From: an uncultured Acidimicrobiia bacterium | GTDB lineage: Bacteria; Acidobacteriota; Terriglobia; Versatilivoradales; Versatilivoraceae | Length of the DNA: 64,000 nucleotides | Assembly: GCA_963786955.1 (NCBI GenBank) | Contig: CAWBAT010000008.1 | Location: 32,001-96,000 of the forward strand | Direction: 5' to 3' | Shown: positions 15,761-64,000 of the stretch, in pieces | Numbering within the stretch: position 1 is the stretch's first letter | How the letters are laid out: the number at the start of each line of letters is the position of its first letter | Notes under the pieces: model-generated | What the model was told of the DNA's origin: nothing | The model's input: the letters and a program-made list of their open reading frames with translations, nothing else | Database searches by the model: none | Program-made: the position numbers and the translations under genes

Positions 15761-15784
15761 GGATTCCAGAATAAAGTGACGACT

Positions 15785-16254: not shown

Positions 16255-16282
16255 AGTTAATGCACAGTGTCCTTGCATCCAG

Positions 16283-19964: not shown

Positions 19965-20057
19965 AGCTTTTGTTTGGAGGGGCCCGATTATCTCGTTTCA
20001 AGTTCAAATTATAGCGAGGGGCACGGCCTCTTGCTTTGTTCGTGAAAAGTGCTTTCT

Positions 20058-21056: not shown

Positions 21057-21203
21057 GGAACAATCAAAGGTGTCACTTAGCTGGCAGCTCTGGGTCAAGA
21101 GGTCTTGCCAAAGTGGGAAAGAGCCAACCCGTCATGCTTTGTGGTTAAATCGTCTTTCAATGAAACATCCCGCGGGAAGTATCCCAGGCGTTGACCCCCT
21201 ACC

Positions 21204-21809: not shown

Positions 21810-22135
21810 CACAACGAAGTATCATTTCATGTTTATATCGGCATGAAGCTGCTTAGTGAGAAAGCCCCGAGCCGTTGCTCGTCCGGTTAGTGTACATTCA
21901 GATCCGGAGTTCTATTTTAGCGAGGCAACATGGCCTGACCAACAAAAAACGCAGAACTGTTTTGAATTATTAAAAAAAGGAGGGGTTGAAATTGACACCA
22001 CCGAGCCCGGAAATGGAGCGAATGAAGTCAGGGATTGAGTTTTTGCTCTCGGAGAACCGGCAGGGCTCATGAATTCAATGGCCCAGCCACACAGGGAACC
22101 GGTTCAGCTTATGTTTTCTTCAGATCGGAGCCAGC

Positions 22136-23296
22136 TTAGAATAATCTTCTTGAGATATTGAAACCAATTCCCAATCCACTCCAGGAGTCACTGTATCCCG
22201 GGTAAAGGGCACTGCGGGTGGCCGATCGTTGGGAGATCGACGTCCCGGGAGAATTCGTGAAACCGAACGTGAAGCTGTGACGGAAGATTTTCTTCTGAAC
22301 TCCCAGCATGAATGAAGCGCGTTGAGTCCCCAGAAGTCCTAAAACACGTGGGCTTGCTTCGGCTACAAAAGCCACAGTGGGACGAATGTCGATGGAAACG
22401 CCGGCCCCAAGCGCGACAGTTGTTTCCCCCTTCCCTTTAAACTGAAGGTTAATAACATCTTGTAACGAACGATTGTTGAAAGAAATACTGGGCACAAAAT
22501 AGACCTGAGAGCGCTTCTTGATCGTCTTTGCCAGGGCGAATTCCATACTGGTAATGTACTCATTCCGGAAATCGTTTGTCCCCTCGACGGAGACCCGTAC
22601 GATGCTCGAAAAAGGCTGTCCAAGTTCTTCCTGTGAAAGCTGAGCGCCAACACCAAATTGGAGCTCTCTGCCTAGTGCTGTAGGAACCCGGTACGCCCCT
22701 ACAAAAAATCGGTCGGTCAATCCATACGTCAGGCCGAAAGAGGAAACCGAGAAGCCGTCCATCCCAAACAGGTAAGACAATCGAGCTTGTCCGACAAAGG
22801 TTGTGTCGTACGAAAAGCGGTGGGCGAAATCCACATAGAGCGCGTGTTTGTCAATATGGCGAGCCGTGGGAAGAGTCCAGAGGATGATATCCTCGGTATG
22901 ATAAACATCCTCATCTTTCTTGATGACTTTCTTGGAAGTTGAAGCGGTATCGGAGTTCTTTGCCTCGGAAGGGGCCGGCCCTGCCTGTCCCGAAGCCACT
23001 TCGGTTGCTCCGGGATCCCGTGGAGGAATCTCAAGGATTTGATGGGTCGCGGTATCAATCAAATAGCGTTTCCCGTCTTTTTCGAGCAAAATCTGAGAAC
23101 TGGACTCTTTGACAAACTCCACGCCCTTTAGTGCTGGAACCGGAGTTAGATGTTGCAGGTCCACACCTTTGTTGGTATCGGCTGTAGCTGAAGCGACATC
23201 CGTCAAAGAGGTGTCTTCAATTGTCTGGGCAGGGAGAAAGACCGGGAAAAGGGCTACCAGAAGTACACTCAAGAAGCGAACGAATCTCAAAACCAT
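22136..23296 (-). CDS. Outer-membrane beta-barrel protein, DUF5777-like
   Basis: Signal peptide; LPTAR..FAHRF..LFGMD, HSFTFGFTNS, C-terminal GFNISRRLF. Confidence 0.65.
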   Translation of the reverse strand: MVLRFVRFLSVLLVALFPVFLPAQTIEDTSLTDVASATADTNKGVDLQHLTPVPALKGVEFVKESSSQILLEKDGKRYLIDTATHQILEIPPRDPGATEVASGQAGPAPSEAKNSDTASTSKKVIKKDEDVYHTEDIILWTLPTARHIDKHALYVDFAHRFSYDTTFVGQARLSYLFGMDGFSVSSFGLTYGLTDRFFVGAYRVPTALGRELQFGVGAQLSQEELGQPFSSIVRVSVEGTNDFRNEYITSMEFALAKTIKKRSQVYFVPSISFNNRSLQDVINLQFKGKGETTVALGAGVSIDIRPTVAFVAEASPRVLGLLGTQRASFMLGVQKKIFRHSFTFGFTNSPGTSISQRSATRSALYPGYSDSWSGLGIGFNISRRLF

Positions 23297-42750: not shown

Positions 42751-45700
42751 GTGGAGCAAAACCGTTGGCAGCATATCAGCCAGGTTTTGGAAGCTAGCCT
42801 GGAGCATGAAACGGGCAGTCGAGCCCAGTTTCTCGCTGAAGCCTGTGGTGGGGATGAGGAATTGCGCCGAGAAATAGACTCGCTGCTCGCTTTCGAGCCG
42901 GAGCTCAAACATTTTCTCGAAACACCGGTACTGGAGCAGATATCTCAGTCTCAGACTGCCAAACCAGAACCTTCGCTGGTAGGTCAACAAATCGGTATCT
43001 ACAAAATAGTTTCACAACTCGGAGTCGGCGGCATGGGAGAGGTGTATCGTGCGCTCGACACCCGGTTAGGCCGGACGGTAGCGCTCAAGATTTTGCCCGC
43101 AGAAGTGGCACAAGATCAAAACCGAATGCGGCAGTTCATTCGGGAGGCAAGGGCAGCCTCCGCATTGAATCACTCTAACATTTGCACCATTCATCACGTC
43201 GGAGAGTCGATTGGAATCCACTTTATTGTCATGGAATATGTCGAGGGAGAGACGCTGGCGCAACAAATGGAGGAGAGACGTAGTCCAATCGTCTCAAGAA
43301 AGTCGCCATCACATCCTCAAGAAATAAAGTCTGCTGAGGGAAAGCCACTGGAAAAACGCCAGCTAAGGTTAGTGGAAACTTCCGAAATTCTCGACTTGGG
43401 CATTCAGGTCGCGGATGCCCTCGAAGAAGCCCACAGCAAAGGAATCACCCATCGAGATATCAAGCCTGGCAATATCATGCTCACGCCGCGAAGGCTGGTG
43501 AAAGTCCTGGATTTTGGACTCGCCAAGATGACTCGAAAGGAAGGGGAGACGACGAGGATTGACTTGAAAACGCCAACGCGGGTAGAACCCGGGCTCATCC
43601 GGGGTACGGTCTCGTACATGAGCCCGGAGCAGGTGTTAGGCAGGGAGGTAGACTATCGCTCGGACCTCTTCAGTTTAGGGGCCGTGTTGTACGAGATGGC
43701 AACGGGACGGTTACCGTTTGCAGGAACGACGAGCACTGAAACGATGGACATGATCCTGCATGCGCAACCAGAACCCATCGCGAAATTCCGTCATGATCTG
43801 CCAGCTGAATTGGTCCGGATCATCAAGAAATTGCTTGAAAAGAACAGGGAGCGACGCTACCAGTCGGCACGGGAGATTGGAGTCGATCTAAGAAACCTGA
43901 AGCGGGACAGCAATTCGGGGCTCAAGGCGTTTTCACTTCTATCTGGAAGATATGTTCCTGTATCCCTCAGAACCCGCAATTCCGCACTGCGCGTCGGAAT
44001 ACCAGTAATCTTTCTACTTCTTATCGGTGCAATGTTGTGGTCCTACTATTCTTCCAATCTGCGAGAAAAATCCGCGCCTCGACTAAGAGCGTTCGAATTT
44101 ACAGGCTACCCGGGAGTTGAAGGTAGTCCAGCTTTTTCTCCCGATGGCAAACAGGTCGCGTTTTCATGGGATAGCGCAAAGCGGGACAACTTTGATATTT
44201 ATGTTCGGTATCTTGATGAAGTGGTCCCCCAACGACTAACGAATCACCCGGATATTGAGTATTTCCCTGCCTGGTCTCCCGACGGCCAGTGGATCGCCTT
44301 TCGCCGCTTGACCTCTGGAGGCTCAGACATTGTCGTGATGTCGGCACGCGGTGGCAAAGAGCGTTTGATTGCCTCGACTACTGTGAGATTGGATCATTTG
44401 TGGTACTTGCCCCTCAGCTGGACGAAGGATGGCAAGTTCATTATCGCGACGGACAAGACTAATCCTCAGGCACTCAATCACTGCATTTATCGCTTTCCCC
44501 TGGAAATGGGACGAAAAGAACAATTGACCTTCCCATTGCCCAATCAGGACGATATCTCTTCTGCTCTTTCGCCTGACGGGAAAATGCTGGCCTTCGCCAG
44601 AGGTCAGAACATCGGCGAAGCAGATATCTATCTGCTCTTCTTGGATCCATTAAAGTCTGGCAGAGAGCCGCAACGCCTCACTTCGGAGATGCAAGAAATT
44701 GAGGGCCTGGCTTGGGCACCAAATGGACAAACCATTATTTATTCTTCCAATCGAGGGGGTGCACTACGGACTCTTTGGAAGATATCGGCAAGAGGAGGGA
44801 ATCCTGAGCCTTTGATTGGAATTGGCGATGATGCTTACTTTCCGAGTGTAGCTGCAAGCGGCGATCGGCTCATCTATCAAAGATTGATCTTTAGCTCCAG
44901 CATTTGGCGCATCAAGGAGCTAGGTTCAAGGGCGAAACCCCAGCGGCATGAACACTCTGTAGAGCGTATGGTCAGCCCCAGCCAAAAGAATTTTGACCCC
45001 CAGTTTTCTCCAGACGGAAAGAAGATTGCATTTACGTCGGCCGTCAATTCGGGAATCTTTGATCTCTGGCTGAGTGACACCGATGGTTCGAGCCTGATGC
45101 AACTAACCCATTTGCGGTCAGTGACGACCTTCAGGCCTCGCTGGTCTCCAGACGGTACTCAAATCGCGTTTGCATCCTCCAAAGAAGGCAACCTGGATAT
45201 CTGGGTCGTGAGCGCAGCAGGAGGAGCACCCCGCCTCCTGACCAAGGAAAAGTCTATAGACACTCGACCGAGTTGGTCTAGGGATGGGCGATGGATTTAC
45301 TTTGCCTCCGATCGAGGCGGAGGATTTCAAGCCTGGAAAATCCCTTCTGAAGGTGGAACTGCTGTGCGGGTGACACGGAAGGGAGGATTCATGGCCTTGG
45401 AGTCTCCCGACGCACGTTGGGTTTATTACGACAAATCCGGGCAGGATGGGATCTGGAAAATCCCTGTCAACGGTGGAGAAGAGACTGAAGTGGTGAATGA
45501 AGCGAGGTCCGGCTTCTGGGCCATGGCAGATGAAGGTCTGTTCTTGCTCCATCCAGATACGAAAGAAGGTCCCAAAATAGAATTATTTCAATTTGCTACC
45601 CACAAGCTCGAGACTATCATGACTCTCCGCGACCACTTTGGACCCAGTACCCTATTCGACAACGGGTTAGACGTCACCGCGGATGGAAGCTGGATCATAT

Positions 45701-45756
45701 TTTCAATGATCGAGTTTCCCGAATCCAGTCTCGTGATGGTGGAAAACTTCCGCTGA
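42751..45756 (+). CDS. Ser/Thr protein kinase with TM helix and TolB-like (PD40) beta-propeller
   Basis: GVGGMGEVY, VALK, HRDIKPGN, DFGLAK, YMSPEQ; one TM segment; many PAFSPDG/WSPDG repeats. Confidence 0.93.
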   Translation: MEQNRWQHISQVLEASLEHETGSRAQFLAEACGGDEELRREIDSLLAFEPELKHFLETPVLEQISQSQTAKPEPSLVGQQIGIYKIVSQLGVGGMGEVYRALDTRLGRTVALKILPAEVAQDQNRMRQFIREARAASALNHSNICTIHHVGESIGIHFIVMEYVEGETLAQQMEERRSPIVSRKSPSHPQEIKSAEGKPLEKRQLRLVETSEILDLGIQVADALEEAHSKGITHRDIKPGNIMLTPRRLVKVLDFGLAKMTRKEGETTRIDLKTPTRVEPGLIRGTVSYMSPEQVLGREVDYRSDLFSLGAVLYEMATGRLPFAGTTSTETMDMILHAQPEPIAKFRHDLPAELVRIIKKLLEKNRERRYQSAREIGVDLRNLKRDSNSGLKAFSLLSGRYVPVSLRTRNSALRVGIPVIFLLLIGAMLWSYYSSNLREKSAPRLRAFEFTGYPGVEGSPAFSPDGKQVAFSWDSAKRDNFDIYVRYLDEVVPQRLTNHPDIEYFPAWSPDGQWIAFRRLTSGGSDIVVMSARGGKERLIASTTVRLDHLWYLPLSWTKDGKFIIATDKTNPQALNHCIYRFPLEMGRKEQLTFPLPNQDDISSALSPDGKMLAFARGQNIGEADIYLLFLDPLKSGREPQRLTSEMQEIEGLAWAPNGQTIIYSSNRGGALRTLWKISARGGNPEPLIGIGDDAYFPSVAASGDRLIYQRLIFSSSIWRIKELGSRAKPQRHEHSVERMVSPSQKNFDPQFSPDGKKIAFTSAVNSGIFDLWLSDTDGSSLMQLTHLRSVTTFRPRWSPDGTQIAFASSKEGNLDIWVVSAAGGAPRLLTKEKSIDTRPSWSRDGRWIYFASDRGGGFQAWKIPSEGGTAVRVTRKGGFMALESPDARWVYYDKSGQDGIWKIPVNGGEETEVVNEARSGFWAMADEGLFLLHPDTKEGPKIELFQFATHKLETIMTLRDHFGPSTLFDNGLDVTADGSWIIFSMIEFPESSLVMVENFR

Positions 45757-49659: not shown

Positions 49660-50843
49660 TTAGACTTTGGCATCGACAGTTATTGCTCGCACCTCTTGCC
49701 AGCTCCCACTCTGCCAGGAACGTTGAAGAGCGGCTTGTACCTTAGCAACCTCGAGAGAATCAGCAAATCCAGGCTCCCCTTGCTTGCCCTCCGCGATCGA
49801 CGTCAGAAATTGGAATGCTTCGATGGTCTTTAGATCCTCGTAACTCAGCCCAATGCCGGGGCCCGGGTTGAAGCGGAGATGGAAAGGATGCTCGGGACTG
49901 CTGAGGACCCGCACATAACCTCCTGAGGCATTGTCCCCACCTGCGAACGAGACTTGCAATTCATTCATTCGTTCGAAATCCCAACTCAGGGCTCCATTCG
50001 TTCCGTGAACTTCAAATGCCATCTGACACTGCGGGCCTTTGATAATTCGGCAGGCCTCCAGCGTGCCATGCGCACCGTTTGTGAAGCGGACCAGGGCTCC
50101 GGCATAATCTTCATTGGTTACGTTCCCCTTGGGACCGTCGCCCCCCAGGCTGAAATGAGTGCCTACCCCGGGTATGGGGAGAGGTCGCTCCGTAATGAAA
50201 GTCTCGGCATTCCCCACGACGCGTTGAATTGGCCCGGCGATCATGTGAGCCATATCGATGACGTGTGACAATAAGTCTCCACTGGCGCCTAAGCCGCCCA
50301 ATTCCTGTTGAAAACGCCACGACAGGACTCCTTGCGGGTTGGTTGCGTATCCAGCAAAGAAACGTCCGCGGTAATGAGTGAGCTTTCCGAGCCGCCCGTC
50401 CTGTATAAGATTCCGGGCATATTGCACCAGGGGCGCCCAACGATAGTTGTAACCGACAAAGGTGAGGACTCCGGCTTAGCGGGCCGCCTGTTCGATGGCG
50501 GCGGTCTCCTCGGGGCTCCTGCCCACCGGCTTCTCGCAAAAAATATGTTTGCCGGCTTTTGCGCTCGCCTTGCCATTTCCAAATGGAAAAAATTGGGAGA
50601 AGCAATATTAATCACTTCGATTTCCGGGTCGTTAACCACGGACAGCCATTCGGTCGTACAGCGCTCAAAGCCCAGTCGATCCCGGGCGTCCTGGGTCCTT
50701 GACTTTACATCGTCGGCGCAGGCAATGAGACGCGGTTGGAGAGCGCAGTCTGGAAAACGTTCCGCGATTTGACGGTAGGAACGACTATGCTGGACACCCA
50801 TCCAACCCATTCCGATGACACCGATTCCGATACTGCGTGGCAT
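49660..50843 (-). pseudogene. Gfo/Idh/MocA oxidoreductase (myo-inositol/levoglucosan dehydrogenase-like), disrupted
   Basis: GVIGMGWMG..HLEMAR, then a frame change near 50568 to [14 protein letters not shown], then an in-frame TAA (50476-50478) before [15 protein letters not shown]. About 394 aa if repaired. Confidence 0.8.
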
Positions 50844-51374: not shown

Positions 51375-54300
51375 CTAAACCGCGCCGGTCAGTTTATCTA
51401 TCAACAACCCTGTCAGGTGGGCAACAGTCCGCCCCTTTAAGAGTTGTGCCATCGGAATACTCACCTTTAAGTCGGTCTCAATCCGATTTAACAACTCAAG
51501 GGCCATCAACGAATCAAACCCAAAGTTGTTCAGAGGCTTTAGCGTGTCTATGCTGCCGGCCGGGAGTTGCAGCACTCTAGCGAGTTGGTCGCACAAATAG
51601 TTCTCCAACATTTGTTGGCGTTCTCGTGGCGTAACAGCCAAAAGGCTCTGCAGCGTCAAACTGTGGTCTTTCCTTTCACCAACCGGACTTTCAAACTCAT
51701 GCGTGAAGTGAGCAATCAGCCGCAGTTCCTTAGCTGCCGGGAAAAATTGGCAGAATCGTGTCCAATCAATTGGCAGCACCACCATCTGGGGCGGGGCTTG
51801 GTACAGTAGTTTCGCTAAGATCTGGACGCCTTGCTCCGGTGAGATGAAGTCCATCCCTTGGTCACTCAAACGGCGCTGGTCTTGATCGTGAGCGGCCGCA
51901 ACCATCCCCACTTCTGACCATGGGCCCCAATTAATGCTCAAGGCTGGAAGCCCTTGCGCTTGTCGAAGGTGTGCCAAAGCATCCAAAAAGGCATTGGCGG
52001 CGGCATAATTCCCCTGACCGGGCGCGCCCAAAATTGGAGCCGTGGAGGAGAACAGCACAAAGAAGTCCAATTCCTTATTTTTCGTGAGCAAATGCAAATT
52101 CCAAGCTCCGTCCACCTTGGGAGCCATCACGCGAGCAAAACGCTCCCACTTTTGTTGCAGCAACACGCCATCATCAAGAGCGCCAGCCGCATGAATGATG
52201 CCTCGCAATGGCGGCATCGCATCATCGATTTCGGCGATAACCTTGGTGATTTGGTCATGCTGAGAGACATCCGCCCGGGCAACCACCACCCGTGCTCTCG
52301 TCTTTTCCAGCTTACGTACAATATCTCCGGCATCTCCGGTGGCACCACTGCGCCCGACAAGCACCAAATTCCGTGCTCCTTGGGCTACCAACCACTCGGC
52401 TGCCTTAAGCCCCAAGCCCCCCAAGCCGCCGGTAATGAGATACGTCGCATCGGCATTGAAAGTCCCGTCGGCCGACCGCAACGTCTTCTCTTCCTGGGTA
52501 AGTACAATTTTTCCAACATGCTTAGCTTGCGCCATGTACCGAAACGCACCGATTGCTTCTTGGATGGGAAAGACGCGATACGGCAGTGGTTCGAGGGCTC
52601 CTGATTGGACACTCGCCATCAGCTTGCGCAGCATCTCTTGGATTAACCCGGGCTCTGCGTCCACGATGTCGCCCAAGTAAAATACAAAATAAGCGATATC
52701 GGGTTTCAATCGAACGACCTGGCTTTCGTCCCAAATGCCCGTCTTGCCGATTTCCAGAAAACAGCCCTTCGGGGCCAGCACCGACAAACTCTTGGGAATA
52801 AAATCGCCGGCCAAAGAGTTGAGCACAATATCGACGCCACGCCCCTCCGTCAGGGCCATCACCTCATCGGCAAAATCGAGCGTGCGCGAATCCAAAACGT
52901 GCTGTACGCCCAATGAGCGTAGAAGTGCGCGCTTCCTAGGACTGCCGGCTGTAGCAAAAATTTCCGCACCGACTCGCTGCGCCAGTTGCACGGCAGCCAT
53001 TCCTACGCCGCCAGCGGCCGCATGAATTAAGACCCGCTTCCCGGCTGAGATCTTGGCCAGATGATGCAACGTGTAGTATGCGGTCAGGAAAGCAATGGGC
53101 ATCGTAACCGCTTGCGCAAAGCTCAAGTTGTGTGGTTTGGGCACCACCAGATCGGCCCGGGTCACTACAGATGAGCTAAAACTGCCATAGGCCACTCCCA
53201 CTACCTCGTCCCCAACCTGCACCCCTTTGACACCTTCGCCCACAGCTGTAATCGTTCCGGAACACTCATCTCCAAGTAAATTGTCCGCACCCGGATACTT
53301 TCCCAATGCTTTTAAGACGTCTTTAAAGTTGAGGCCCGTTGCCTGAACGCGAATCTCCACTTCACCTGGGCCTGGCTCGTGGAGTGTCTTGGGGCGGAAC
53401 ACCAACGTGTCCAAAAGGCCACGTGAGTTAACATCGAGCTGGAACGCCCGATCTTCCGGCACGACGAGGCGATGTTTGGCCTCATCCTCGCTTCGGTGGT
53501 GACGCACTATTCTCGCCACCCAGCGGTTAGCTCCCCGAAACGCAACCTGTGTTTCCCTTGCACCTGACCAGGCTTCCCTGAACAGGAGCTCACTTTGATC
53601 GGTTTCCGGCCATGGGTCCAAATCTACTCGTACACAGTGCAGCCCCGGGTGTTCCATGGCGATCGTGCCGCCCAGCCCCCAGAGCGTTGCCTGAGCGACG
53701 GTCAGAAGTGTGGGTTCGGGCCCTGCCGGCTGTGCGCCGCGCGTAACCAGCCATAGGCCCTGCAAACCTTCTCCTAATGTTGCCAGTGCCTGAACCAAGT
53801 GGAGAGCGCCACCGCAAATCTGTGCCTGTGTCGTTTCTTTTCCCGGTTCACTATCCAATGCCCACAAGTAAATCACCCCACGAAGTAGCCGGACTGTTTC
53901 CACGGCTTCTTGGAGTAATCGTTGAAAATCGGCGGGGCGGCTTGGATTGACTTGCCAAAGCCCACCCTTGGCGGCCGCATAAGTCTCGCCGGGAATGACG
54001 AGAACACATGTTTCACCTTGCGCCTTCAGGCGTTCGGCCAGAGCTTCCCCGACTCCACCCTGGTCCGCTAAAATCAACCATCCTCCCGCCTTTTCCCTTG
54101 AGTTTTCGATTTCAAGTTTGGCATCGAATTCCTGAATCTCCCAGGCCACCTCATACAGCCAAGAATCAACGTCTGTTAGGATGGCTCGCTGCAAGGCTTC
54201 GCGCGATGCGTGCCTGAGGTACAAGTCTTCCACCTCTGCCACGATCTGCCCAGTCTCATCAAACAAACGGACATCCACGGCGAAGCTATCTTGGCCTTCT

Positions 54301-57300
54301 GCATCGTTTGGTTTGCGAATAATCTGACCCCATAACGGGGTGGAAGAGCGTTGGTAAATACCAATTCGCTTCATGCCGACTGGCAAATAAACGCCAGTGC
54401 CCATCTTCCCGGTCTCAAACGATGACGCCAGCAAAAGTTGGAAGGCAGCATCGAGCAGCGCTGGATGAATTCGATAGGCGTCTAGATCATTTACCAGGGC
54501 TTCGGGCAAGCATATTTGTCCCAGCACTTCCCCTTCATGCCGCCAAATTTGGGTAATTCCCTGAAAGCGCGGCCCATATTGAAGTCCCAGCTCGCGGACG
54601 CGTGCATAAAATGCACTTGCGTCAATCTCTTCTTGGCAACGTGCTTGTGCCGCGGAAAGTGAGGCGCCATCCAATATAGGTTCTCGATCGGCTTGTCGCA
54701 GGCGAATATTACCCGTCACATGTACTTTCCAATTGCCTTTCTCGGTTAGACTGACTACCTGAAAAGCTGCCGTTTCAGTATCCTCCGGCGTTAGAATGAG
54801 CTGAACAACCGTTGCCTCGGGGGAAGCATCTGGCAGAATCAGGGCTTGGTGAATCGTAACTTCTTCTAGCAGATGATTGCCCGGGCCGAAGGCCGCACTC
54901 GCGGCTGCGAGTGCCATCTCAACATAAGCAGTCCCCGGCACCACTACCGTCCCATAGACTCGATGATCCGTTAGGAAGGATGGCGAATCGGCATGCAAAT
55001 GAACTTCAAACTGAATCTCTTTCAGTGCCGAGCGCAGCCTTTGACCGAGCAAGGGATGAAGCGCCGTTTTTCCCGCACCTTCCTTCGATAGCCCGATACT
55101 CCGGCTTTGAGCATGCTTTTCCCCTCCTTCAAGCCAGTAACGCTCGCGCTGAAACGGATAGGTAGGCAGCACCACGCGGCAACGTCCGCGTGCATAGTCG
55201 TGTTCAAATCCTGCATGGTCCACATCCGCCCCGTGAACATACAACGTTCCCAGACTCTCCAGCATCTGCTGCCAGTCTGCAATATTTTTCCGGAGCGAAG
55301 GGAGCCAAACCTGGGCCTGCTGCGCCTCCGGGATACACAACTTTCCCATTCCCAAAAGTATTGGGCTTGGGCCAATTTCAAGGAAGAACGTATATCCCTC
55401 GCGTTGAAGGGTCTGCATTGTCGCGGAGAATCTTACCCCTTGTCGGATGTGACGCTGCCAGTAAGCTGTGTCTGGTATTTCATCGAAATTCAGCATTTGC
55501 CCTGTCAAGTTGGAGACTAAAGGAAGACGCGGGGCATTGTAATCCACTTGGCGGGCGGTTTGCGCGAAGGCATCCAGCATCGGTTCCATCAAAGGCGAGT
55601 GAAAAGCATGCGAAACGTTCAGAGGCTGAGTCTTCACTTTCTCATTCCGAAGTTTTTCAATCACAGTCTGCACGGCGGTTCGCTCGCCGGATATCACGAT
55701 ATTCTTTGGGCCATTATAGGCAGCGATGGAAACGGATTGGAAATAAGGAGCAATGGCTGCCTCTACGCGCTCTTCTCCTGCGAACACCACGGCCATCATC
55801 CCGTCCCTTGGAAGGGCCTGCATGAGGCGACCACGCTCGGCAATGAGCTTCAGTCCATCATCTAGGGTGAATACGCCAGCCACGCAGGCCGCCACATATT
55901 CACCAACACTATGACCCAGCACAATCGCCGGCTCTATCCCCCAGGATCGCCACAGCGCTGCCAACGCATATTCAATGGCAAATAACGCCGGTTGGGTGTA
56001 AGCGGTCTCGTCCAGCAATGAAGACGAACCGGATTCCGGGTAAAGCACTGACAAGAGCGGCTGTTCCAAGTGGGGACGGAGTAACTCGTTGCACTTGTCT
56101 AATGCCGCGCGGAAGGTGGGCTGGGTCTCATAAAGTTGGCGTCCCATGCCAACATATTGCGAGCCTTGACCTGTAAACAGGAAAGCCACCTTGGGCTTTT
56201 CCGTGCCTTCGATTTGTCCGCTCATCACGCCGGGTTGTTTTTGCCCGTTTGCAAAAGAGTTCAGTTTCTCCCGCATTTGGAGGGATGACTCGGCCACAAC
56301 CGCTAGGCGATGATTAAAATGGCCTCGCCCGGTATTGGCGGTGAAACAGATATCCGCTAGTGAAGCTAAAGGTTCGGCCGTCAGGTGTCTCTCAAATCGA
56401 CCGGCAAGCTCCTTTAATGCCACTTCGCTTTTCGCCGAGACATTGAGAAGATGGAGTGGTCTGTCAGCTTCAAGCTTCACTGGTTGGGCTGCAGGGGCTT
56501 CCTCCACTACTACGTGAGAATTAGTTCCGCTCAGTCCAAACGAGCTGACGCCGGCAATTCTTTTTTCATTCCCGGCAGGCCAGCGGGTTCGTCTTGTCGG
56601 AATGGTGACCGGCACCTCATTCAATGAAATATGTGGATTGATCTGTTTAAAGTGCAACAAAGGTGGTATTTCCTCATTCTGCAATGAAAGCACCAATTTG
56701 ATGAGACCGGCAATGCCGGCTGCGGAGTCGAGGTGGCCGATATTGCTCTTGGCCGAGCCAATCATCAAACGTCTATTCTCTGCTCGTCCCTCGCCGAGCA
56801 CTGCTCCCAAAGCCCGCACCTCAATGGGGTCTCCAAGGGAAGTCCCGGTACCGTGAGCCTCAACATAACTTATCTGAGCCGGTTGGACTCGGGCATCCGT
56901 TAGAGCTTGGCGAATCATCGCCTGCTGAGCCAGTCCGTTCGGAACGGTCAGGCCTCCACTGGGGCCATCATGGTTGACTGCTGAGCCTCTGATCAATGCG
57001 AGGATGTTGTCACCATTTGCAACCGCATCGGAGAGACGCTTGAGAACAACAACTCCGCAACCCTCTCCTCGTCCAAAGCCGTCGGCGGCAGCATCAAAGG
57101 TTTTGCAGCGACCATCAGCAGACAATGCTCTGAATCTGGAGAGGGTGATGTACAATTCCGGTGAAAGAATCAGGCTCACGCCGCCCGCCAGGGCAAGGTC
57201 GCACTCGCCGGAGCGCAGGCTGCGGCAAGCGAGGTGGACTGCTACCAACGATGAGGAGCACGCAGTATCAACAGAGAGACTGGGGCCGTGAAGGCCCAAG

Positions 57301-57887
57301 ACGTAGGACAACCGACCGGCCGCAAAGCTAAAATTGACGCCGGTAACAAAATAGGCGTCTATGTTTGTGGGATCACCCGCTTTCACATGCAGTTTTGAGT
57401 AATCGTCTGTCATGATCCCCATGAACACGCCTGTCTGGCTGCCAGCTAGTTTGTCCGGTGCCTGTCCGGCGTTCTCCAACGCCTCCCAGCTTACCTCTAG
57501 GAGTAATCTTTGCTGAGGGTCCAGGCTCATTGCTTCGCGGGGGGAAATATTGAAGAATCCGGCATCGAATTTGTCGATGTCATCCAAAAAGCTGCCATAT
57601 CGTGTATAAATCTTGCCAGGCGCATCCGGGTCCGGGTCATGATAAGCCTTGACATCCCACCGGTCCTGCGGCATCTCGGCGACAGCATCCACACCGTTGC
57701 GTAAGAGCTGCCAAAACCCCTCCGGATTATTGCCTCCACCAGGGAAACGGCACCCCATGCCGATAACCGCAAGAGGTTCCGTTTTCGAACGCTCGACGGC
57801 GTCGAGCTTAGACTGCATTTTCTCCAGCGAGAAAAGTGCCTGCTTCAGTGGAGACAAAAAGCCGGGATGTTCTGAGTTCTGACTCAT
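51375..57887 (-). CDS. Type I modular PKS: KS-AT(malonyl)-DH-ER-KR-ACP, no TE
   Basis: KS DTACSSS/HGTGT/NIGH; AT GHSVG and HAFH; [22 protein letters not shown]; [11 protein letters not shown]; [18 protein letters not shown]; ACP GFDSL. N-terminal docking helix LSPLKQAL. Confidence 0.95.
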
Positions 57888-60343
57888 GACAGTTTCTTCT
57901 TTATACTCTCTAATCTTTTGATGAGTAATGCTTCTGCTTCGTCCTCAGAGAGTTGTTCGAGCTCATGCAAATCCATCACTGCCTGAGGATGGTTGGCTGT
58001 CGGTGGTTCCACCTGAGAGGCCCCGGACGGATTCAGCGGCAATACGGTCGAGGCAAGATACCCGGAAAGGGATTCAATGGTCGGATAGTCGAAAACCAGA
58101 GTAGAAGAAAGCGGCTGTCCAAGGCTGGTCTGGAGATGGTTCATGAGCTCAACGGCTGCAAGGGAGTTTAGGCCTACGTCAAACAACCCTTGCTGTGGCC
58201 TTATTGGAAAAGAGGGATCAAGTCCCAGTACATTGACGACCTGATCTCGAACATGTGTCCGCAAGATATCTTGACGTTTCGTTGGAGACGCTTCCTCTAA
58301 TCGCCGCAAAAATTCTGGCCGTTCTTTCGCCGGCTGCATGCTTAATTGCAATTCGCCTGCCAGCTTGGATGAATGATCTTCATTAGGAGCCTGATCTCGC
58401 GTAATATCTCCCCCTTCAACACTTAAGCCCCCTCCCTCTTTGTGCAGCCACTCTAACCAGAGGCGCTCGCGTTGCCAAGGATAAGTGGGTAGTTGGGTAC
58501 ATTGGTTCTCATCCGGATAGAGCCCGTTCCAATTCACCTTATTCCCTTGGGCATAGATAGAACCCAATGCCTCAAGCATAATTTTCCGATCCGCGTTTTT
58601 ATCTATCGCAGAAGAAACTACAGTACTTGCTTGATTGCACTCATGTAGCAATCGAGAAATTGCCTCGGAAAGGGCGGGATAAGAGCCAGATTCTGGGAGG
58701 TCGGGCTGATCCTCCCTAACCTTTGGGCTGAAGAACACACCGGGTGTCACCTTCCTCTGTAGGAATGATTGCAGGGACTGGGCCAATGCTTGCAAGGAAT
58801 GACCTATGAGGGCGAGGCGGTATTCATGATGGCTTCGCCGCACGCTAGCGGTGTAACAAATGTCTCGCAGCGAGACACCAGCTCCGATCCCTTTTTCGGT
58901 CAGGAAATTTTTGTAAGCCAGCGCAAGGTCCAATAGCGCCTTCGGAGTGCGTGCAGATAACGTTAGAATTTGCGACTCTCCGTCAACGGGCTGTTCCGCA
59001 CCATTCCTTGCGATGCTGGCGGAGCGAGATTGCTGTCCAGCACCCCGTGGAGGGGCCTCCAACACGGCATGTGCATTGCCCCCAGCCATGGAAATTGCAG
59101 TCACTCCCGCCAGTGAGGGTCCAGATTTGGCGGGCCACGGACCCAGTGTCCGTTGTGCCAACAGGCCGAGCGATTCCATGGGAATCTTCGGATTGAGATG
59201 CTGAAGGTGTAAAGTCGGTGGGATCTCTCCGTGATAGAGGGAAAGCGCCACTTTAATGAGGCCAGCAATACCGGATGCCGAATCCAAGTGACCAATGTTG
59301 GTTTTGACAGAGCCCACAATACAGGGACGAAGACGCTGGGTTCCAGAGTTGAGGACGGCCCCTAGTGCGTTTGCCTCGATGGGGTCGCCTTTGGGAAGTC
59401 CTGTGCCATGCAACTCTACATAGTCGATTTCAGTCGGCTCAACACCCGCGACATGAAGGGCCTCACGAATAACGGTCTCTTGGGCTGATGAGTCACTGGC
59501 CATGATCCATTCGTTATGGCCATTGTGGTTGAGCGCAGTCCCGCGAATGAATGCGTAAACGCGGTCTCCGGGCATTAACTGAGAGCGTAACTTGAGCACA
59601 ATGACCCCGGCGCCCTCCCCGCGAACAAAGCCATCTGCCCGGGCGTCTAAGGTTTTACAGCATCCATCAGGAGAGAGAACTCCGGCCTTGGACAGCATGA
59701 TGTTGACATCGGGCGACAGAATGAGATTCACTCCACCCGCCAATGCCAGGGTAGTCTCTTCCATCCAAAGACTCTGACAGGCAGTGTGGACCGAGGCCAA
59801 CGACGCGGCACAAGCACCATCAATGGCCATGCTTGGCCCCCTCAAATCAAAGAAGTAGGAGATTCGGCTCGGAGCAAAAGCAAAGGCATTGCCGGTAGCC
59901 GCGTAACCATTGAGCTGCAAAGGTTCCCTCGACTGCAGCCTGAGATAGTCGTTCCACATGATCCCCATGAACACGCCAGTCGGGCTGCCACGGACGCTTT
60001 CCAAGGGCAGCCCAGCATCTTCAAGAGCCTCCCACGCGACCTCGAGGAGCAGGCGGTGCTGTGGGTCCATATATTTCGCTTCTCGTGGAGGAATTCGAAA
60101 TGCACGCCAATCGAATTGATCGGCATTGTCGAGGAATCCACCGCGCCGGCTGATCATCTTGCCGGGGCTGTTGGGGTCCGGATCATGGAGTGAGTTTACG
60201 TCCCAGCGATCGGCCGGAACCTCGCGAATTGCATCGCTTCCTTCTCGCAGCAGCTTCCAGAACGCTTGTGGACTGGGAGCCCCTGGGAGACGGCACCCCA
60301 TCCCCACAATGGCGATGGGCTCACGCGGAATTTTTGAATTCAC
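57884..60343 (-). CDS. Type I PKS KS-(AT deleted)-ACP with C-terminal docking domain
   Basis: KS DGAC/HGTG/NIGH; the KS-AT linker joins almost directly to the post-AT linker (LPTYPWQRERLW); no GHSxG; ACP GLNSL; tail LEQLSEDEAEALL. ATGA overlap with the next PKS gene. Confidence 0.9.
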   Translation of the reverse strand: MNSKIPREPIAIVGMGCRLPGAPSPQAFWKLLREGSDAIREVPADRWDVNSLHDPDPNSPGKMISRRGGFLDNADQFDWRAFRIPPREAKYMDPQHRLLLEVAWEALEDAGLPLESVRGSPTGVFMGIMWNDYLRLQSREPLQLNGYAATGNAFAFAPSRISYFFDLRGPSMAIDGACAASLASVHTACQSLWMEETTLALAGGVNLILSPDVNIMLSKAGVLSPDGCCKTLDARADGFVRGEGAGVIVLKLRSQLMPGDRVYAFIRGTALNHNGHNEWIMASDSSAQETVIREALHVAGVEPTEIDYVELHGTGLPKGDPIEANALGAVLNSGTQRLRPCIVGSVKTNIGHLDSASGIAGLIKVALSLYHGEIPPTLHLQHLNPKIPMESLGLLAQRTLGPWPAKSGPSLAGVTAISMAGGNAHAVLEAPPRGAGQQSRSASIARNGAEQPVDGESQILTLSARTPKALLDLALAYKNFLTEKGIGAGVSLRDICYTASVRRSHHEYRLALIGHSLQALAQSLQSFLQRKVTPGVFFSPKVREDQPDLPESGSYPALSEAISRLLHECNQASTVVSSAIDKNADRKIMLEALGSIYAQGNKVNWNGLYPDENQCTQLPTYPWQRERLWLEWLHKEGGGLSVEGGDITRDQAPNEDHSSKLAGELQLSMQPAKERPEFLRRLEEASPTKRQDILRTHVRDQVVNVLGLDPSFPIRPQQGLFDVGLNSLAAVELMNHLQTSLGQPLSSTLVFDYPTIESLSGYLASTVLPLNPSGASQVEPPTANHPQAVMDLHELEQLSEDEAEALLIKRLESIKKKLS

Positions 60344-60364
60344 CGCAGTAGTTCCCCCAGATGT

Positions 60365-60643
60365 TTACAATTGGCGAGGTTCTGCCCGCTGTGCTCCTGC
60401 GAGTTCCACAACCAAGTTAGTTATAGAGGTCAGATCCTTGAAATTGTCTGGAAGAATCTTATCCGCGGGCACTTTCACACTGAATCGGTCTTGGATAAAG
60501 CTAACAATTCTGGCCATCTCAATCGAGTTAATAATCCCCCATTCAAGCAACGGAGTCGATTCATTCAGACCGATATCTTTTCCGTCAAGCACCTCTCGGG
60601 AAATATAACTTTTTACGCCATCGAGAACTTCTGATTGGTTCAT
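60365..60643 (-). CDS. Standalone prolyl/pyrrolyl carrier protein (PltL/AnaD-like)
   Basis: TPLLEWGIINS(I), matching the TPLLEWGILNS motif I recall for PltL; 92 aa. Confidence 0.88.
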   Translation of the reverse strand: MNQSEVLDGVKSYISREVLDGKDIGLNESTPLLEWGIINSIEMARIVSFIQDRFSVKVPADKILPDNFKDLTSITNLVVELAGAQRAEPRQL

Positions 60644-60807
60644 GTTAATCTCTCTTTAAATACTCTATTCTGCAATCAATCTATTTGACAATGCCAGGTC
60701 ACTTACCGTTGCATAATAAGCGCTTCTGCTGCTAGCAGTAAGCCTGAATTTTCAATAGGTTTTCCACCTTAATGGATAACTGGCTCTCTCCGCTGGTGAT
60801 GCAAAAC

Positions 60808-62310
60808 TCAAGAATGAGCCACATCACTCATCAGACTGAGTCGATCAACTTTTCCATTCCTGGTACGAGGAAGGGAATTCAGGAAATTCACTTTATCGAC
60901 AATCATGTAGCGGGGAAGACGCTCGGCACAGTGTCGTTTGATGTCGAGCAACGTAGGCGGTTCGTCGGCTGTGCTCACAATAAAGGCAATGAGCCGTGCC
61001 TCTACCCCACTACCGGATACGACAACCGTTGCCTCCTTGACCTTGGGGTATTGTCCAAGAGCCGCCTCGATGTCTCCCAGCTCAACACGGTGGCCGCGCA
61101 CCTTCACCATGTGATCTTTGCGCCCAATGTACATGTAGTTGCCATCCTCCTCGAGCCGAACAATGTCGCCGGTAGCATACGGCTTGTCGCCGTGAAGTGG
61201 CTGCCCCCAATAGCCCAGAAGCACGGTTGGGCCGGAGACCATCAGTTCGCCTTGCTCTCCTGGGTTGACCTCGGTACCATCGTCTTTGACCCCCCATACA
61301 CGGTCGCCGGAGCATGCCCGGCCGATAGGAACCGGCTTCGTGCGATCCTTCGCGATCTCAGTCACCTCATAGAAGGTACAGACATTGGTCTCGGTCGGGC
61401 CATAGAGGTTGAGATATCGCATTGAAGGCCAACGTTCATATAACCGCCGCAAGTGCCCAATAGGAAATGGCTCGCCAGCAAATAGGATGGCGCGAAGTGG
61501 ATTATGCTGCAGCTCCAGCAGTCCACCCTGCTCCATCATGAGGATCAATGCGGATGGGACGGAATACCAAATTGTTATGTTTTCTTGGATGATAAAGTCG
61601 ACCAGTCTTTGGGGAACATAGGACATTCCATCGGGAATTAGGGAAACTACTCCGCCCGCGCGAAACGCCACGTAGAGATCGAGTACCGATAGGTCAAAAT
61701 GGAACGGGGCGTGGTTAGAAAAATGATCGGCCGAATTTACCCGAAGTTCATCGGCAGCCCAATTGATAAATGCGAGGGCATTGCGATGGCTGATACAAAC
61801 CCCCTTGGGCTTGCCGGTTGAGCCAGACGTATAGAGTATGTAAGCCAAGTCATCGTCAGCAGGGGCCGGTAGTTCTACCGACCGGTCTGAGAATGCCGAT
61901 AGGTCATTCCAGCTAATTCCTTGCCCGGTATCATCCACGCACAAACGCGTCACCTGTTTGAGATCATCTGTGAGAATGGATTCGGCGCGGTTTGCCGTGC
62001 TCACGAGCGCTCGCATGGCGCAGTCCTGCACGATCGTGCGGGTTCGAGCCGCAGGAGCCAGCGGGTCGAGCGGAACGTATGCCGCCCCGATTCGCAGCAC
62101 GCCTTGCATCGCCGCTACTGCGCGCGCTGACTTGTCAAGCCAGATTCCGACTCGGTCGCCGCTGCAGACACCCTGCTCGGCCAGCGCTCGGGCGATACGG
62201 TTCGCCAGGCGATCCAGTTCGCCATATGTGAAGTTGCCATCTGGGCCCTTGACAGCCAATGCGTCCGCTGTGCGCTGCGCGCTCAGGATAAGAATGTCTT
62301 TCAGACTCAT
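60808..62310 (-). CDS. Standalone L-proline adenylation enzyme (PltF/AnaC/RedM-like)
   Basis: YILYTSGSTGKPKG, FDLSVLD, WYSVPS, ILFAGE, NLYGPTETNVC, NGKVDR. Specificity code read by eye: DLLYLALVCK. Confidence 0.9.
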   Translation of the reverse strand: MSLKDILILSAQRTADALAVKGPDGNFTYGELDRLANRIARALAEQGVCSGDRVGIWLDKSARAVAAMQGVLRIGAAYVPLDPLAPAARTRTIVQDCAMRALVSTANRAESILTDDLKQVTRLCVDDTGQGISWNDLSAFSDRSVELPAPADDDLAYILYTSGSTGKPKGVCISHRNALAFINWAADELRVNSADHFSNHAPFHFDLSVLDLYVAFRAGGVVSLIPDGMSYVPQRLVDFIIQENITIWYSVPSALILMMEQGGLLELQHNPLRAILFAGEPFPIGHLRRLYERWPSMRYLNLYGPTETNVCTFYEVTEIAKDRTKPVPIGRACSGDRVWGVKDDGTEVNPGEQGELMVSGPTVLLGYWGQPLHGDKPYATGDIVRLEEDGNYMYIGRKDHMVKVRGHRVELGDIEAALGQYPKVKEATVVVSGSGVEARLIAFIVSTADEPPTLLDIKRHCAERLPRYMIVDKVNFLNSLPRTRNGKVDRLSLMSDVAHS

Positions 62311-62384
62311 GCGTCCAATTCCTTAAATTTTACGAAACTGCTTTTGATTAGTTAATGACGAAGCGAGCCGACCACGGGTGTCCT

Positions 62385-63530
62385 CTATAAACCCAACCAA
62401 CGAGCAATGACCACCCGCTGGATGTCGGACGTGCCGGAATAAAGTATCCCGCCGACGGCGTCACGTAGATCGCGCTCCACCTCAAACTCGGTTGTGTAAC
62501 CATACCCACCATGGATTCTTACGGCGTCGAGGCTCGATTGGACAAAACACTCACTCAGGTGGAGTTTGGCCATCGCGGCTTCCATCACGGCGGGTTTGTC
62601 CATCTTCTTGAGCCAGGCAACTTTATACAAAAGCAGCCGGGAGGTTTCCAAACGTACCTGCATGTCAGCGATGCGATTAGCCACTGATTGAAATTTGCCG
62701 ATCGGTTGGCCAAATTGGCGGCGCTCACGCGCGTATCGAATGCATATTTCCAATTGATGCTCCATCGCGCCGATGTGGCTGGCCAGAATGCAACTCCGTT
62801 CCCATTCCATCGAACTGCTGAAGATGGTGACCCCGGCTCCCTCCGGCCCCAGCCGACTCTCAGCGGGCACGTAACAATCGTCCAAAATTAATTCTCCCAT
62901 CGGTGAAGTACGCAAGCCCATCTTCTCCGTGTGACCACCCACACGAAAACCCGGCGTGCCTTTCTCCACCAAGAAAGCGCCGATGCCGCCGATGCCTTTG
63001 GCAGGATCTAAGGTCGCAAAAACCACGGCTAGATCGGCCATGGGGGCGCTAGTAACGAAAACTTTGGTGCCGTTTAGCACGTAACCGTTATCACGCTTCT
63101 CAGCACGTGTGCGCAGACTGTAGGCATCGGACCCCGAATCCGGTTCAGTCATCCCATGAGCACCAATCAGGTCTCCGCCGCACAATCCAGGCAGATATTT
63201 TTCCTTCTGCGCTTCCGTACCAAAAGTTAAAATAGGGAGTTGCACACTCCACATCTGAGCATTCAAAGCAAAAATTAACCCGTTGTCACGACATCCATAT
63301 CCTAGCCCTTCCATCGTCAGCATCGTCGTCAGAATGTCTGCGTCGGTGCCGCCGTATTTTCCCGGAATGGGCAATCCTTGAATGCCTAACTGGGCGCACT
63401 TTCGCCAATTTTCAGTTGAAAATTCTCCGTCTTTATCACGCTGCACTAGGTTGTTGTTCAGCTCTTGTTGGGCAAATTTGATCACTTCGTGTTTGAACGA
63501 GAGCTGTTCTTCTGTCCAGGAAAAATCCAT
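62385..63530 (-). CDS. Prolyl-carrier-protein dehydrogenase/oxidase (PltE/AnaB-like, acyl-CoA dehydrogenase fold)
   Basis: 381 aa from MDFSW; EGLGYGCRDNGLIF, TEPDSGSD, SMEWER, YSGTSDIQR; adjacent to the proline A domain and carrier protein. Confidence 0.9.
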   Translation of the reverse strand: MDFSWTEEQLSFKHEVIKFAQQELNNNLVQRDKDGEFSTENWRKCAQLGIQGLPIPGKYGGTDADILTTMLTMEGLGYGCRDNGLIFALNAQMWSVQLPILTFGTEAQKEKYLPGLCGGDLIGAHGMTEPDSGSDAYSLRTRAEKRDNGYVLNGTKVFVTSAPMADLAVVFATLDPAKGIGGIGAFLVEKGTPGFRVGGHTEKMGLRTSPMGELILDDCYVPAESRLGPEGAGVTIFSSSMEWERSCILASHIGAMEHQLEICIRYARERRQFGQPIGKFQSVANRIADMQVRLETSRLLLYKVAWLKKMDKPAVMEAAMAKLHLSECFVQSSLDAVRIHGGYGYTTEFEVERDLRDAVGGILYSGTSDIQRVVIARWLGL

Positions 63531-63603
63531 CGTTTCTCTCACTCTCTCTAGGCAACGGCGAATTTTAACTTCCTGCGCCGAACCAGAAGTTCCCAATCAT
63601 GAG

Positions 63604-64000
63604 TTACCTTTGTGGTGACTCTGCGATGCGCTCATAAAGTACCCTAGTGATTCCGCTGAGAAAGTGTTCGAGGCTCTCAGCAACCACCAGTAGAAAAGAA
63701 TTCCAAGTCCTGTCGATGAAGCTGTGACAATGGGGGGACAGTGTGCACTTGAAAGCGCTATTGCTCTGATCTTGCCATGTGAACAGCGTTTGGGGCGTGT
63801 TACTGAGGTCATCCAAGTCCCTGAAAATCGTTATGGCACAGTCCGGCACGCGCGTGCTCATTGTAATATCGGCCCGAAGTGCGGGCAAGATTAATCCCGC
63901 ATGCCCTTGCGAGCGTCGGATCATCGAGGACGCCGTACCAGGCTTGGTGTAGCTTTGCGATGAAGTCGATGTTGGCGGAGGACTCGGGGAGTGGTGACTT
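63604..64000 (-). CDS. C-terminal part of a possible, degenerate type II thioesterase (5' end outside window)
   Basis: LILPALRADI..DCAITIF..DD..W..F..HSFI resembles the GrsT/TEII C-terminus but lacks some usual residues; possible frame change near 63900. Confidence 0.5.
   Translation of the reverse strand, partial: SHHSPSPPPTSTSSQSYTKPGTASSMIRRSQGHAGLILPALRADITMSTRVPDCAITIFRDLDDLSNTPQTLFTWQDQSNSAFKCTLSPHCHSFIDRTWNSFLLVVAESLEHFLSGITRVLYERIAESPQR

Follow-up and report, generated by a model that had tools for sequence, protein, structure and literature searches.

We argue that the island of biosynthetic genes at the end of the 64,000-nt stretch analysed here probably makes a pyrrolyl-capped short oxo-acyl chain from a thiotemplated proline starter and two polyketide synthase (PKS) modules. 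The stretch (the window) is C8:32001-96000 of a 5.65-Mb, 9-contig genome (G000). Six frames lie head to tail on the minus strand at 51375-64000 according to Pfam and NCBIfam: the remnant of a type II thioesterase (TEII), a prolyl-carrier dehydrogenase (ProDH), an adenylation enzyme (A), a carrier protein (PCP), a KS-ACP protein and a large reducing synthase, KS-AT-DH-ER-KR-ACP (PKS2). The original prediction, which was made from the letters of the DNA, had claimed this co-oriented run, and all six elements are there. Beyond the window the cluster runs on for 0.9 kb and takes in a phosphopantetheinyl transferase (PPTase) gene, then a tRNA-Leu gene. These two are all that joins it when the contig is read beyond 64000 for a halogenase, cyclase, C domain or release enzyme. 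This is a real, well-preserved and ordinary orphan proline-primed type I PKS island, unsurprising in kind. The earlier remark that it matches no known pathway still stands: no characterised cluster was matched in the searches made, which did not include a MIBiG or antiSMASH comparison.

The elements of the island are listed here; coordinates past the window end are window-equivalent (contig C8 minus 32000).

51375..57887, minus strand: PKS2, 2170 aa, KS-AT-DH-ER-KR-ACP (Pfam)
56649..57779, minus strand: KS of PKS2, residues 37-413 (PF00109 + PF02801)
55224..56183, minus strand: AT of PKS2, residues 569-888, the sole AT of the island (PF00698)
51405..51599, minus strand: ACP of PKS2, residues 2097-2161, the last domain of the line (PF00550)
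57884..60343, minus strand: KS-ACP, 819 aa (Pfam); 4-nt overlap of its stop with the PKS2 start
60365..60643, minus strand: PCP, discrete prolyl carrier, 92 aa (PF00550, 21.9 bits, cut-off 20.8)
60808..62310, minus strand: A, stand-alone adenylation enzyme of proline type, 500 aa (TIGR01733, 360.6 bits, above cut-off)
62385..63596, minus strand: ProDH, acyl-CoA dehydrogenase (ACAD) fold, 403 aa from a TTG start (three ACAD Pfam domains)
63658..63975, minus strand: TEII remnant, the C-terminal ~106 codons, within a 131-codon open frame at 63604-63999
64166-64864 (window-equivalent), minus strand: PPTase, Sfp/HetI-type, 232 aa (PF01648 + PF22624)
64971-65057 (window-equivalent), minus strand: tRNA-Leu(CAG) (ARAGORN), the upstream boundary of the island

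Among solved enzymes A is closest to PltF (6o6e; 494 bits, about 48% identity, 229/474 by hand count). All code-bearing segments are identical in the two enzymes (FDLSVLD, IWYSVPS, LFAGEPFP, GPTETNVCT, NGKVDR), where we take the code positions to fall on these segments from GrsA numbering. The code DLLYLALVCK that had been read for A, like the motifs SMEWER in ProDH and TPLLEWGIINS in PCP, is present in or consistent with the translations. PCP finds PltL as its best solved carrier (E 6.5e-13), then the Bmp1 carrier (1.5e-10) and PigG (4e-7), and its serine motif reads TPLLEWGILNS in PltL. The homology of ProDH starts at Met23, and its catalytic Glu is aligned with that of its solved relatives. 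These are AnaB (4irn; 477.6 bits, about 54%, 205/382 by hand count), Bmp3 (337 bits) and PigA (321 bits). The top NCBIfam matches of ProDH are PigA (444 bits, cut-off 500) and RedW (405 bits, cut-off 650). The PPTase matches the NCBIfam HetI model at 220 bits, under the cut-off of 370.

PKS2 begins with a docking stretch. It has no TE, and its C-terminus lacks a docking domain. Its motifs were found by eye: DTACSSS, HGTGT and NIGH in the KS, GHSVGE and HAFH in the AT, AAGGVG in the ER, LDD in the KR, FDSL in the ACP, and the DH motif too. We take the familiar rules to assign them, so that HAFH presumably marks a malonyl-type AT and LDD a B-type KR. KS-ACP has no Pfam match to an AT, and no free-standing AT was found with Pfam in the island or its flanks. 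When it is compared with PKS2 by BLASTP, residues 8-537 correspond to the KS and the KS-AT linker, 526-679 to the post-AT linker and 671-763 to the ACP. It keeps Cys-His-His, aligned with the Cys, His and His of PKS2. What it lacks is the AT core (PKS2 about 556-807). Since the pre- and post-AT linkers of cis-AT type are retained, KS-ACP is an AT-deleted module of the cis-AT type and not a trans-AT module. A homologue in the metagenome locus L093 retains the first 121 of the 319 AT profile positions. The C-terminus of KS-ACP (helix-like) and the first 36 residues of PKS2 look like docking elements. Together with the 4-nt overlap this gives the order PCP, KS-ACP, PKS2. The domain content supports the claim of a small proline-primed type I line with an extra AT-less module. 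It had also been claimed that the line ends after one fully reducing module, without AnaF or AnaG equivalents. This is confirmed with the flanks included, and there is no release domain. The contig was scanned on each side, and no halogenase, cyclase, condensation domain, reductase or thioesterase was found in the island or either flank.

We propose the following route. Proline would be loaded on PCP, and prolyl-PCP would be oxidised, most probably by four electrons, to pyrrolyl-2-carboxyl-S-PCP. The KS of KS-ACP would take the pyrrolyl unit and condense it with malonyl-ACP. PKS2 would then add one malonate and fully reduce the new keto group. If PKS2 acts once the result would be a 5-oxo-5-(pyrrol-2-yl)pentanoyl thioester, and if it iterates the chain would be longer.

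The cluster family and the pyrrole starter

The window cluster has relatives. Metagenome contigs scanned with KS-ACP gave 10 loci, and the gene order matches in all of them as far as the contigs extend. The order ProDH-A-PCP-...-KS-ACP is seen in six, and the other four are short contigs that begin later. Identities to the window proteins are 73-81% for A, 55-69% for PCP, about 55-68% for KS-ACP and 54-77% for PKS2. Directly after KS-ACP there is a PKS2 homologue in six of the 10 loci, a PPTase in L087 and a nonribosomal peptide synthetase (NRPS) in L093. The interval from PCP to KS-ACP is visible in seven loci. It holds a B12 radical-SAM gene in four of these (L086, L089, L090, L092), a halogenase gene in one and nothing in two; the window copy has nothing there either. 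The relatives' radical-SAM and halogenase genes match only general NCBIfam families, all below cut-offs. A Gaiella metagenome-assembled genome (MAG) has the ProDH-A-PCP-KS-ACP cassette too, and so do 2 of 401 sampled Chloroflexota genomes, one of which (L113) uses it to feed an NRPS. KS-ACP proteins of 720-830 aa turn up in many metagenomes in a protein search, and there are homologues of 45-47% identity in Dictyobacter, a Ktedonobacteria isolate, and Nannocystis. The window cluster belongs with these loci in one uncharacterised family, whose layout is ProDH-A-PCP-(B12 radical SAM)-KS-ACP-reducing module. A literature search found no description of this cluster type; subscription journals were mostly outside its scope, so this is no proof of being unpublished.

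The dehydrogenase is spread more widely than the family. A scan of species-representative genomes with ProDH gave 314 stretches with 269 relatives, of which the best 80 loci were retained. These have 57-79% identity and come from Chloroflexota, Acidobacteriota, Proteobacteria, Desulfobacterota, Verrucomicrobia and others. An A-domain match is found in 67 of the 80, mostly just downstream of the dehydrogenase and in a few further off or upstream. Only four have a KS-bearing PKS (L070, L075, L081, L084), and L026 matches the ER part only. Four further loci (L005, L012, L020, L031) were scanned for neighbours. In L031 the A gene is separated from the carrier by two flavin halogenase genes, and there is an NRPS as well; L020 has an acetyltransferase and a hexapeptide transferase only.

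A tree of 97 ProDH rows was made, omitting high-scoring segment pairs of <340 aligned residues as well as L111 and L112, which duplicate L113 and L114. The window ProDH falls in a starred clade of 71 rows that also holds the family members L085, L087, L089 and L070 and the halogenase-linked L031 group. We argue that a pyrrole starter would be more plausible than a pyrroline starter for three reasons. First, the ProDH clade holds the halogenase-linked L031 and lies apart from the ana-type clade. Second, family loci carry a B12 radical-SAM gene (4/7) or a halogenase gene (1/7), which brings CloN6 to mind. Third, the same A-PCP-KS-ACP cassette is used with two distant dehydrogenase clades, one at 63-79% identity and the other at 44-48% (L090, L093, L113, L114). 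This suggests that both do the same job.

Two characterised systems resemble the starter cassette. In pyoluteorin biosynthesis in Pseudomonas, PltF, PltL and PltE are likewise a proline A enzyme, a discrete carrier and an ACAD dehydrogenase that feed a type I PKS. Of all solved relatives, these two come nearest to the window A and PCP (PltF to A, PltL to PCP), with identical code segments and a near-identical serine motif. However, A is only about 48% identical to PltF, the window has neither a halogenase nor a TE, its first PKS module is AT-less and its second is fully reducing. The CloN3-CloN4-CloN5 triad of clorobiocin and coumermycin, which goes with CloN6, makes the same proline-to-pyrrolyl conversion beside a B12 radical-SAM enzyme, as four family members might. 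CloN6 methylates the pyrrole-2-carboxyl unit of clorobiocin, according to PMC11218499. The window copy differs in having no radical-SAM gene, and the relatives' enzyme matches only the general model TIGR04190, below its cut-off. Another difference is that the clorobiocin unit ends up on a sugar, with no extension by a PKS.

Several points weigh against a released pyrrolyl product. The ACP of KS-ACP would have to be loaded in trans by the PKS2 AT or by a fatty-acid malonyl transferase, and this step is a guess. ProDH scores below the equivalog cut-offs of both PigA and RedW in NCBIfam. A four-electron outcome is not readable from sequence, and the closest solved relative of ProDH is AnaB, to our knowledge the sole two-electron enzyme of this kind. 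The halogenase and radical-SAM genes belong to relatives and none belongs to the window locus; nor can the relatives' genes be assigned to characterised pyrrole-modifying families. The ProDH tree is a quick maximum-likelihood IQ-TREE run with SH-aLRT support only. Whether PKS2 acts once or iterates is not fixed by its sequence. Finally, there is no TE, C, reductase domain or intact TEII in or near the island, so the present copy may yield nothing that is released.

If the prediction of a pyrrolyl-capped chain holds, the island and its relatives make up a family of pyrrole-primed polyketide clusters that crosses phyla and is as yet uncharacterised. Genome mining in Acidobacteria, Chloroflexota and Gaiellales could then aim at the portable four-gene starter cassette.

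Chain release and the history of the island

It is worth considering how the relatives handle release. Homologues of PKS2 were searched with residues 1250-2170. Six of them (P0133, P0134, P0139, P0140, P0142, P0167) are about 2455 aa long and carry a PF00975 TE, with 51-60% identity to the C-terminal half of PKS2. The Gaiella homologue is KS-AT-DH-KR-ACP-TE, and P0127, which is 70% identical to PKS2, ends in C + TE. The nearest homologue is P0123 (83%, 2214 aa), and it has no TE. Its tail aligns through the PKS2 stop codon (51425-51246, 55% identity). P0123 appears to be on one contig with the KS-ACP protein P0005 (85%), as both report 22,926 bp. The closest relatives as a group (P0004, P0005 and P0123) have 82-87% identity and are encoded on contigs of 20-23 kb. 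The TE-less form is therefore found in at least two organisms and is not private to this genome. A tblastn search with five TEs, that of Gaiella and four from the family, found no TE remnant near the cluster or after PKS2. The chain-release enzyme has apparently been lost from the window copy, unlike many relatives.

The TE domains fused to PKS2 homologues (also that in G045:C188, locus L104) have GxCxG in place of the usual GxSxG. It is present in the four proteins whose C-termini were inspected (P0133, P0134, P0139, P0167) and likewise in the Gaiella TE. These look like cysteine-nucleophile off-loading domains.

The discrete thioesterase is damaged too. The open frame at 63604-63999 has no Pfam match of its own. 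Its TEII-like part aligns in register with residues 235-348 of the 348-residue product of L120:1050-2096 (BLASTP E 4e-9), a PF00975 protein (3.5e-48) whose gene directly precedes that of the dehydrogenase in an ana-type locus of a cyanobacterium. Matches to two other TEIIs are weak, one in register (E 0.059) and one over a short stretch (E 0.017), and there is no similarity to the upstream open reading frame (ORF) of Gaiella. Because of its register alignment with the C-terminal part of a PF00975 thioesterase, we take the frame to be a truncated TEII without its N-terminal half. The PPTase stop is only about 190 bp from the remnant, which means that the N-terminal half has gone and the nucleophile motif with it. 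A frame at window-equivalent 64010-64150 was considered as the end of an IS630-type transposase, but it has no Pfam match and no second genomic copy (blastn, tblastx) and was dropped.

One can imagine a scenario where the cluster is a decaying relic with no released product, having lost its fused TE and its discrete TEII on the same path that led to the remnant in G002, a genome of the same genus. The reduction of the TEII to its C-terminal part and the lack of a TE that many relatives have both fit this. So does the state of G002, which has only a partial PPTase, the tail of KS-ACP and KS-AT-DH. A search for an A orthologue of >50% drew a blank in 40 relatives, where the best match has 49%, and in 400 genomes sampled from the phylum, where it has 48%; this also points the same way. 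However, all five large ORFs of the window cluster (12 kb) are open, even though the assembly has frameshifts elsewhere. The nearest relative, P0123, is TE-less as well. Pieces 90-99% identical to the island occur in contigs from sediment RNA libraries, a weak hint that it is in use. A further objection comes from the history of the island, and for this the flanks have to be considered.

The island is ~14 kb (window about 50,9xx to 64,970) and sits beside the tRNA-Leu(CAG) gene. In G001 and G002, which are of the same genus, both flanks are retained, and synteny resumes at the tRNA. From the oxidoreductase that flanks the island to tRNA-Leu is 4.35 kb in G001, which has DUF1254 and DUF1214 genes and no island, versus 14.1 kb in the window genome. 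At the same site G002 has residues 1-138 of the PPTase (86%) fused to the last 44 codons of KS-ACP. Residues 1-1241 of PKS2 (91%) follow, joined straight to the downstream flank. The G002 remnant thus carries two deletions, of 6.4 and 3.2 kb. Between G000 and G002 the shared part of PKS2 has no stops over 1196 codons, a dN/dS of 0.128 and a dS of 0.36. The flanking genes compare as follows.

Flanking MFS gene, G000 against G002: 419 codons, dS 0.40, dN/dS 0.10
Flanking LamB gene, G000 against G002: 260 codons, dS 0.38, dN/dS 0.15

As the dS of PKS2 equals that of the flanks, the island was in the common ancestor of both species and has been kept since they diverged. Purifying selection on PKS2 means that the island has been functional. 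We argue from these rates that it was broken only recently in G002. A dN/dS of 0.13 at a dS equal to the flanks is not what one would expect of a relic, and we consider that scenario unlikely, if worth keeping in view. The comparison with the two sister genomes makes a clean case of a biosynthetic island at a tRNA gene that is selected in one species and deleted piecemeal in the other.

One could also ask whether the island was joined to this contig by a chimeric assembly. In G002, which was assembled independently, the PPTase meets the tRNA at the same junction, and PKS2 and the GFO flank keep their order and orientation. Its two deletion joints are inside or just past island genes. The shared junction and order argue against a chimeric join.

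Sediment metagenomes from 16 studies, along with three RNA libraries, contain pieces 90-99% identical to the island. The matching contigs are short and none spans an island boundary. Those from the RNA libraries cover pieces of PKS2, KS-ACP, A and ProDH, although transcription is not proven by this.

An att-type repeat of the tRNA was looked for. Window 63891-63915, within the TEII remnant, matches 64989-65013 at 21/25 nt (13 exact, E 0.084), which is too weak to accept, and nothing was found at the far end of the island. The tRNA site of G002 carries a further insertion. It covers 16 kb at G002:C2:691557-707727 (L124, L126, L127) and holds pieces of NRPS genes (A, C, PCP and a TPP-enzyme fusion). 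On one side it is bordered by tRNA-Leu, on the other by an incomplete copy of the 3' part of that tRNA. This second insertion makes tRNA-Leu a repeated landing site for biosynthetic islands in the genus.

Iterative and anatoxin-like alternatives

If PKS2 worked iteratively like MAS or Pks2 of mycobacteria, it would build a long omega-pyrrolyl fatty chain, and its ACP could hand this directly to an envelope lipid or glycan. No TE would be needed. PKS2 has the same domain order as these enzymes and is a lone TE-less reducing module. Its best full-length NCBIfam match is the Pks2/MAS-type model NF041183, aligned end to end (38-2167 against 3-2085 of 2086). Glycan-type genes lie upstream in L085, L086 and L089 (glycosyltransferases, a sugar-phosphate transferase, and a NeuD/PglB-type acyltransferase or sulfotransferases). 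There is also a precedent, since the pyrrole-2-carboxyl unit of clorobiocin goes to a sugar (PMC11218499).

Nevertheless the match to NF041183 is 1332 bits, far under the cut-off of 2400, and many family members have a TE. The AT of PKS2 is presumably malonyl-type and not methylmalonyl-type, and PKS2 is apparently fed by an upstream module via docking ends. The window flanks are conserved chromosome without glycan or lipid-transfer genes. Iteration itself is not a trait that can be read from a sequence. We think it improbable that PKS2 works this way. The related idea that the pyrrole-capped oxo-acyl chain is never freed and passes from the ACP to an envelope glycan or lipid is similarly hard to credit. 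It would fit the triads (dehydrogenase, A and carrier) that lie in polysaccharide loci of Chloroflexota, Acidobacteriota and others, among O-acyltransferases, glycosyltransferases, sulfotransferases and Wzt-type exporters. If it were true, pyrrolyl acylation would be a widespread surface decoration, part of a larger unrecognised habit.

Two such loci were seen among the ProDH relatives. In L005 and L012, around locus positions 5000-19500, the triads stand amid membrane O-acyltransferases (PF01757). L005 has glycosyltransferases near its triad, and L012 has sulfotransferases and a Wzt-type ABC exporter. These triads may serve the pyrrolyl acylation of surface glycans, of which we know of no description.

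It remains to consider whether the cluster is anatoxin-like. In that case ProDH would stop, like AnaB, at (S)-1-pyrroline-5-carboxyl-S-carrier, PKS2 would take the role of AnaE, and the product would be a pyrrolinyl acyl chain, possibly a new cyclic imine alkaloid. The published ana layout, with order and chemistry as in PMC6053186, is a lipocalin-like gene, a TEII, the dehydrogenase, A, the carrier, a KS-AT-DH-ER-KR-ACP protein and two more PKSs. We searched 401 sampled cyanobacterial genomes with ProDH and found nine with a match at E 1e-100 or better. Eight further loci were retrieved, and three of these (L118, L120, L122) have the ana layout, each with three PKSs.

The likeness is real in part. 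The TEII (a remnant here), dehydrogenase, A, carrier and KS-AT-DH-ER-KR-ACP protein come in the same order as in anaA-E. AnaB is the best solved relative of ProDH (477.6 bits against 337 and 321), and the TEII remnant best matches an ana-type TEII. The claim that the gene order mirrors that of the ana genes is therefore sound, but no specific kinship goes with it. The window differs by its extra KS-ACP, a non-reducing module ahead of the reducing one, and by its truncated TEII. Equivalents of AnaF and AnaG and a lipocalin-like gene were not found in the island or flanks. In place of the three-PKS order AnaE-AnaF-AnaG there are KS-ACP and one reducing module, and then conserved chromosome.

The enzymes tell the same story. 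ProDH is 53-54% identical to ana-type sequences versus 63-79% to five members of its own family. The original prediction had called for a tree of the dehydrogenase against AnaB, and the window ProDH is not in the AnaB clade. A starred clade (SH-aLRT 100) unites the three ana-type rows within a starred cyanobacterial clade, and the window ProDH lies across a starred branch from them, grouped with halogenase-linked loci. A is 40-41% identical to ana-type A enzymes versus about 48% to PltF. PCP is nearest to PltL, and the window PCP does not detect an ana-type carrier at E 1e-4. PKS2 is 47% identical to AnaE-like proteins, which is the level of many unrelated modules (42-52%), versus 54-83% within its own family. 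The resemblance to the ana genes is superficial, a matter of gene order and general enzyme class and not of specific descent. We put little weight on a pyrrolinyl product. This is not an anatoxin-type toxin cluster, and no new kind of enzyme chemistry is indicated.

Surrounding genes and other pathways

The host is a probable acidobacterium, as had been suggested, and a marker comparison upholds this. The C-terminal 708 aa of RpoB have a single continuous match of 81% identity to an Acidobacteriaceae MAG and to a Bryobacteraceae MAG. A Chloroflexota genome and the Gaiella genome give only fragmentary matches of 62-74%.

Downstream of PKS2 the flank holds, by Pfam, a GFO/IDH/MocA oxidoreductase, an MFS transporter, a second oxidoreductase and a Ser/Thr kinase. 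Beyond tRNA-Leu there are a LamB/PxpA-family gene and an MFS transporter, followed on the opposite strand by RNase R, a sulfatase and unrelated genes. The nearest flanking gene is as follows.

49660..50843, minus strand: GFO/IDH/MocA oxidoreductase (Pfam), conserved chromosomal flank outside the island, in two frames here

The two frames of this oxidoreductase (49660-50843) overlap, and in G001 it is one ORF of 388 codons. In G002 the frame shifts relative to the window translation near residue 95. Two metagenome contigs have one extra G after window position 50571, within this gene. The split is either a one-base assembly error or a genuine frameshift. An AcrB-type RND pump is split as well, into frames of 160 aa and 877 aa that jointly cover the Pfam model (L002:15559-18671; window-equivalent 77559-80671), and this is likely a second indel in the assembly. 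Window 42751-45756 encodes a protein of 1001 aa that joins a Ser/Thr protein kinase to PD40/WD40-like beta-propeller repeats.

Three of the loci apparently have proline-derived pathways of a different layout. L093, a 254-kb metagenome contig, has a P450, dehydrogenase, A, carrier, halogenase and KS-(partial AT)-ACP at 3341-22605. A C-A-PCP protein with a TubC-type docking domain, a KS-AT-KR-ACP protein and a methyltransferase complete the run. It reads as a halogenated-pyrrole PKS-NRPS line that uses the family starter cassette. Its logic recalls what we would presume of pyrronazol-type compounds.

L075 (Desulfonema magnum) and L084 (Candidatus Electrothrix gigas) have a dehydrogenase, an A enzyme and an arginine decarboxylase at about 5000-21000. 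Beside these genes is a single C-PCP-KS-AT-DH-ER-KR(-ACP) protein. L084 also has a TEII and a C-A-PCP-TE NRPS, and L075 has ABC transporters and a methyltransferase instead. Apparently both are uncharacterised proline-derived hybrid pathways, unlike the window cluster.

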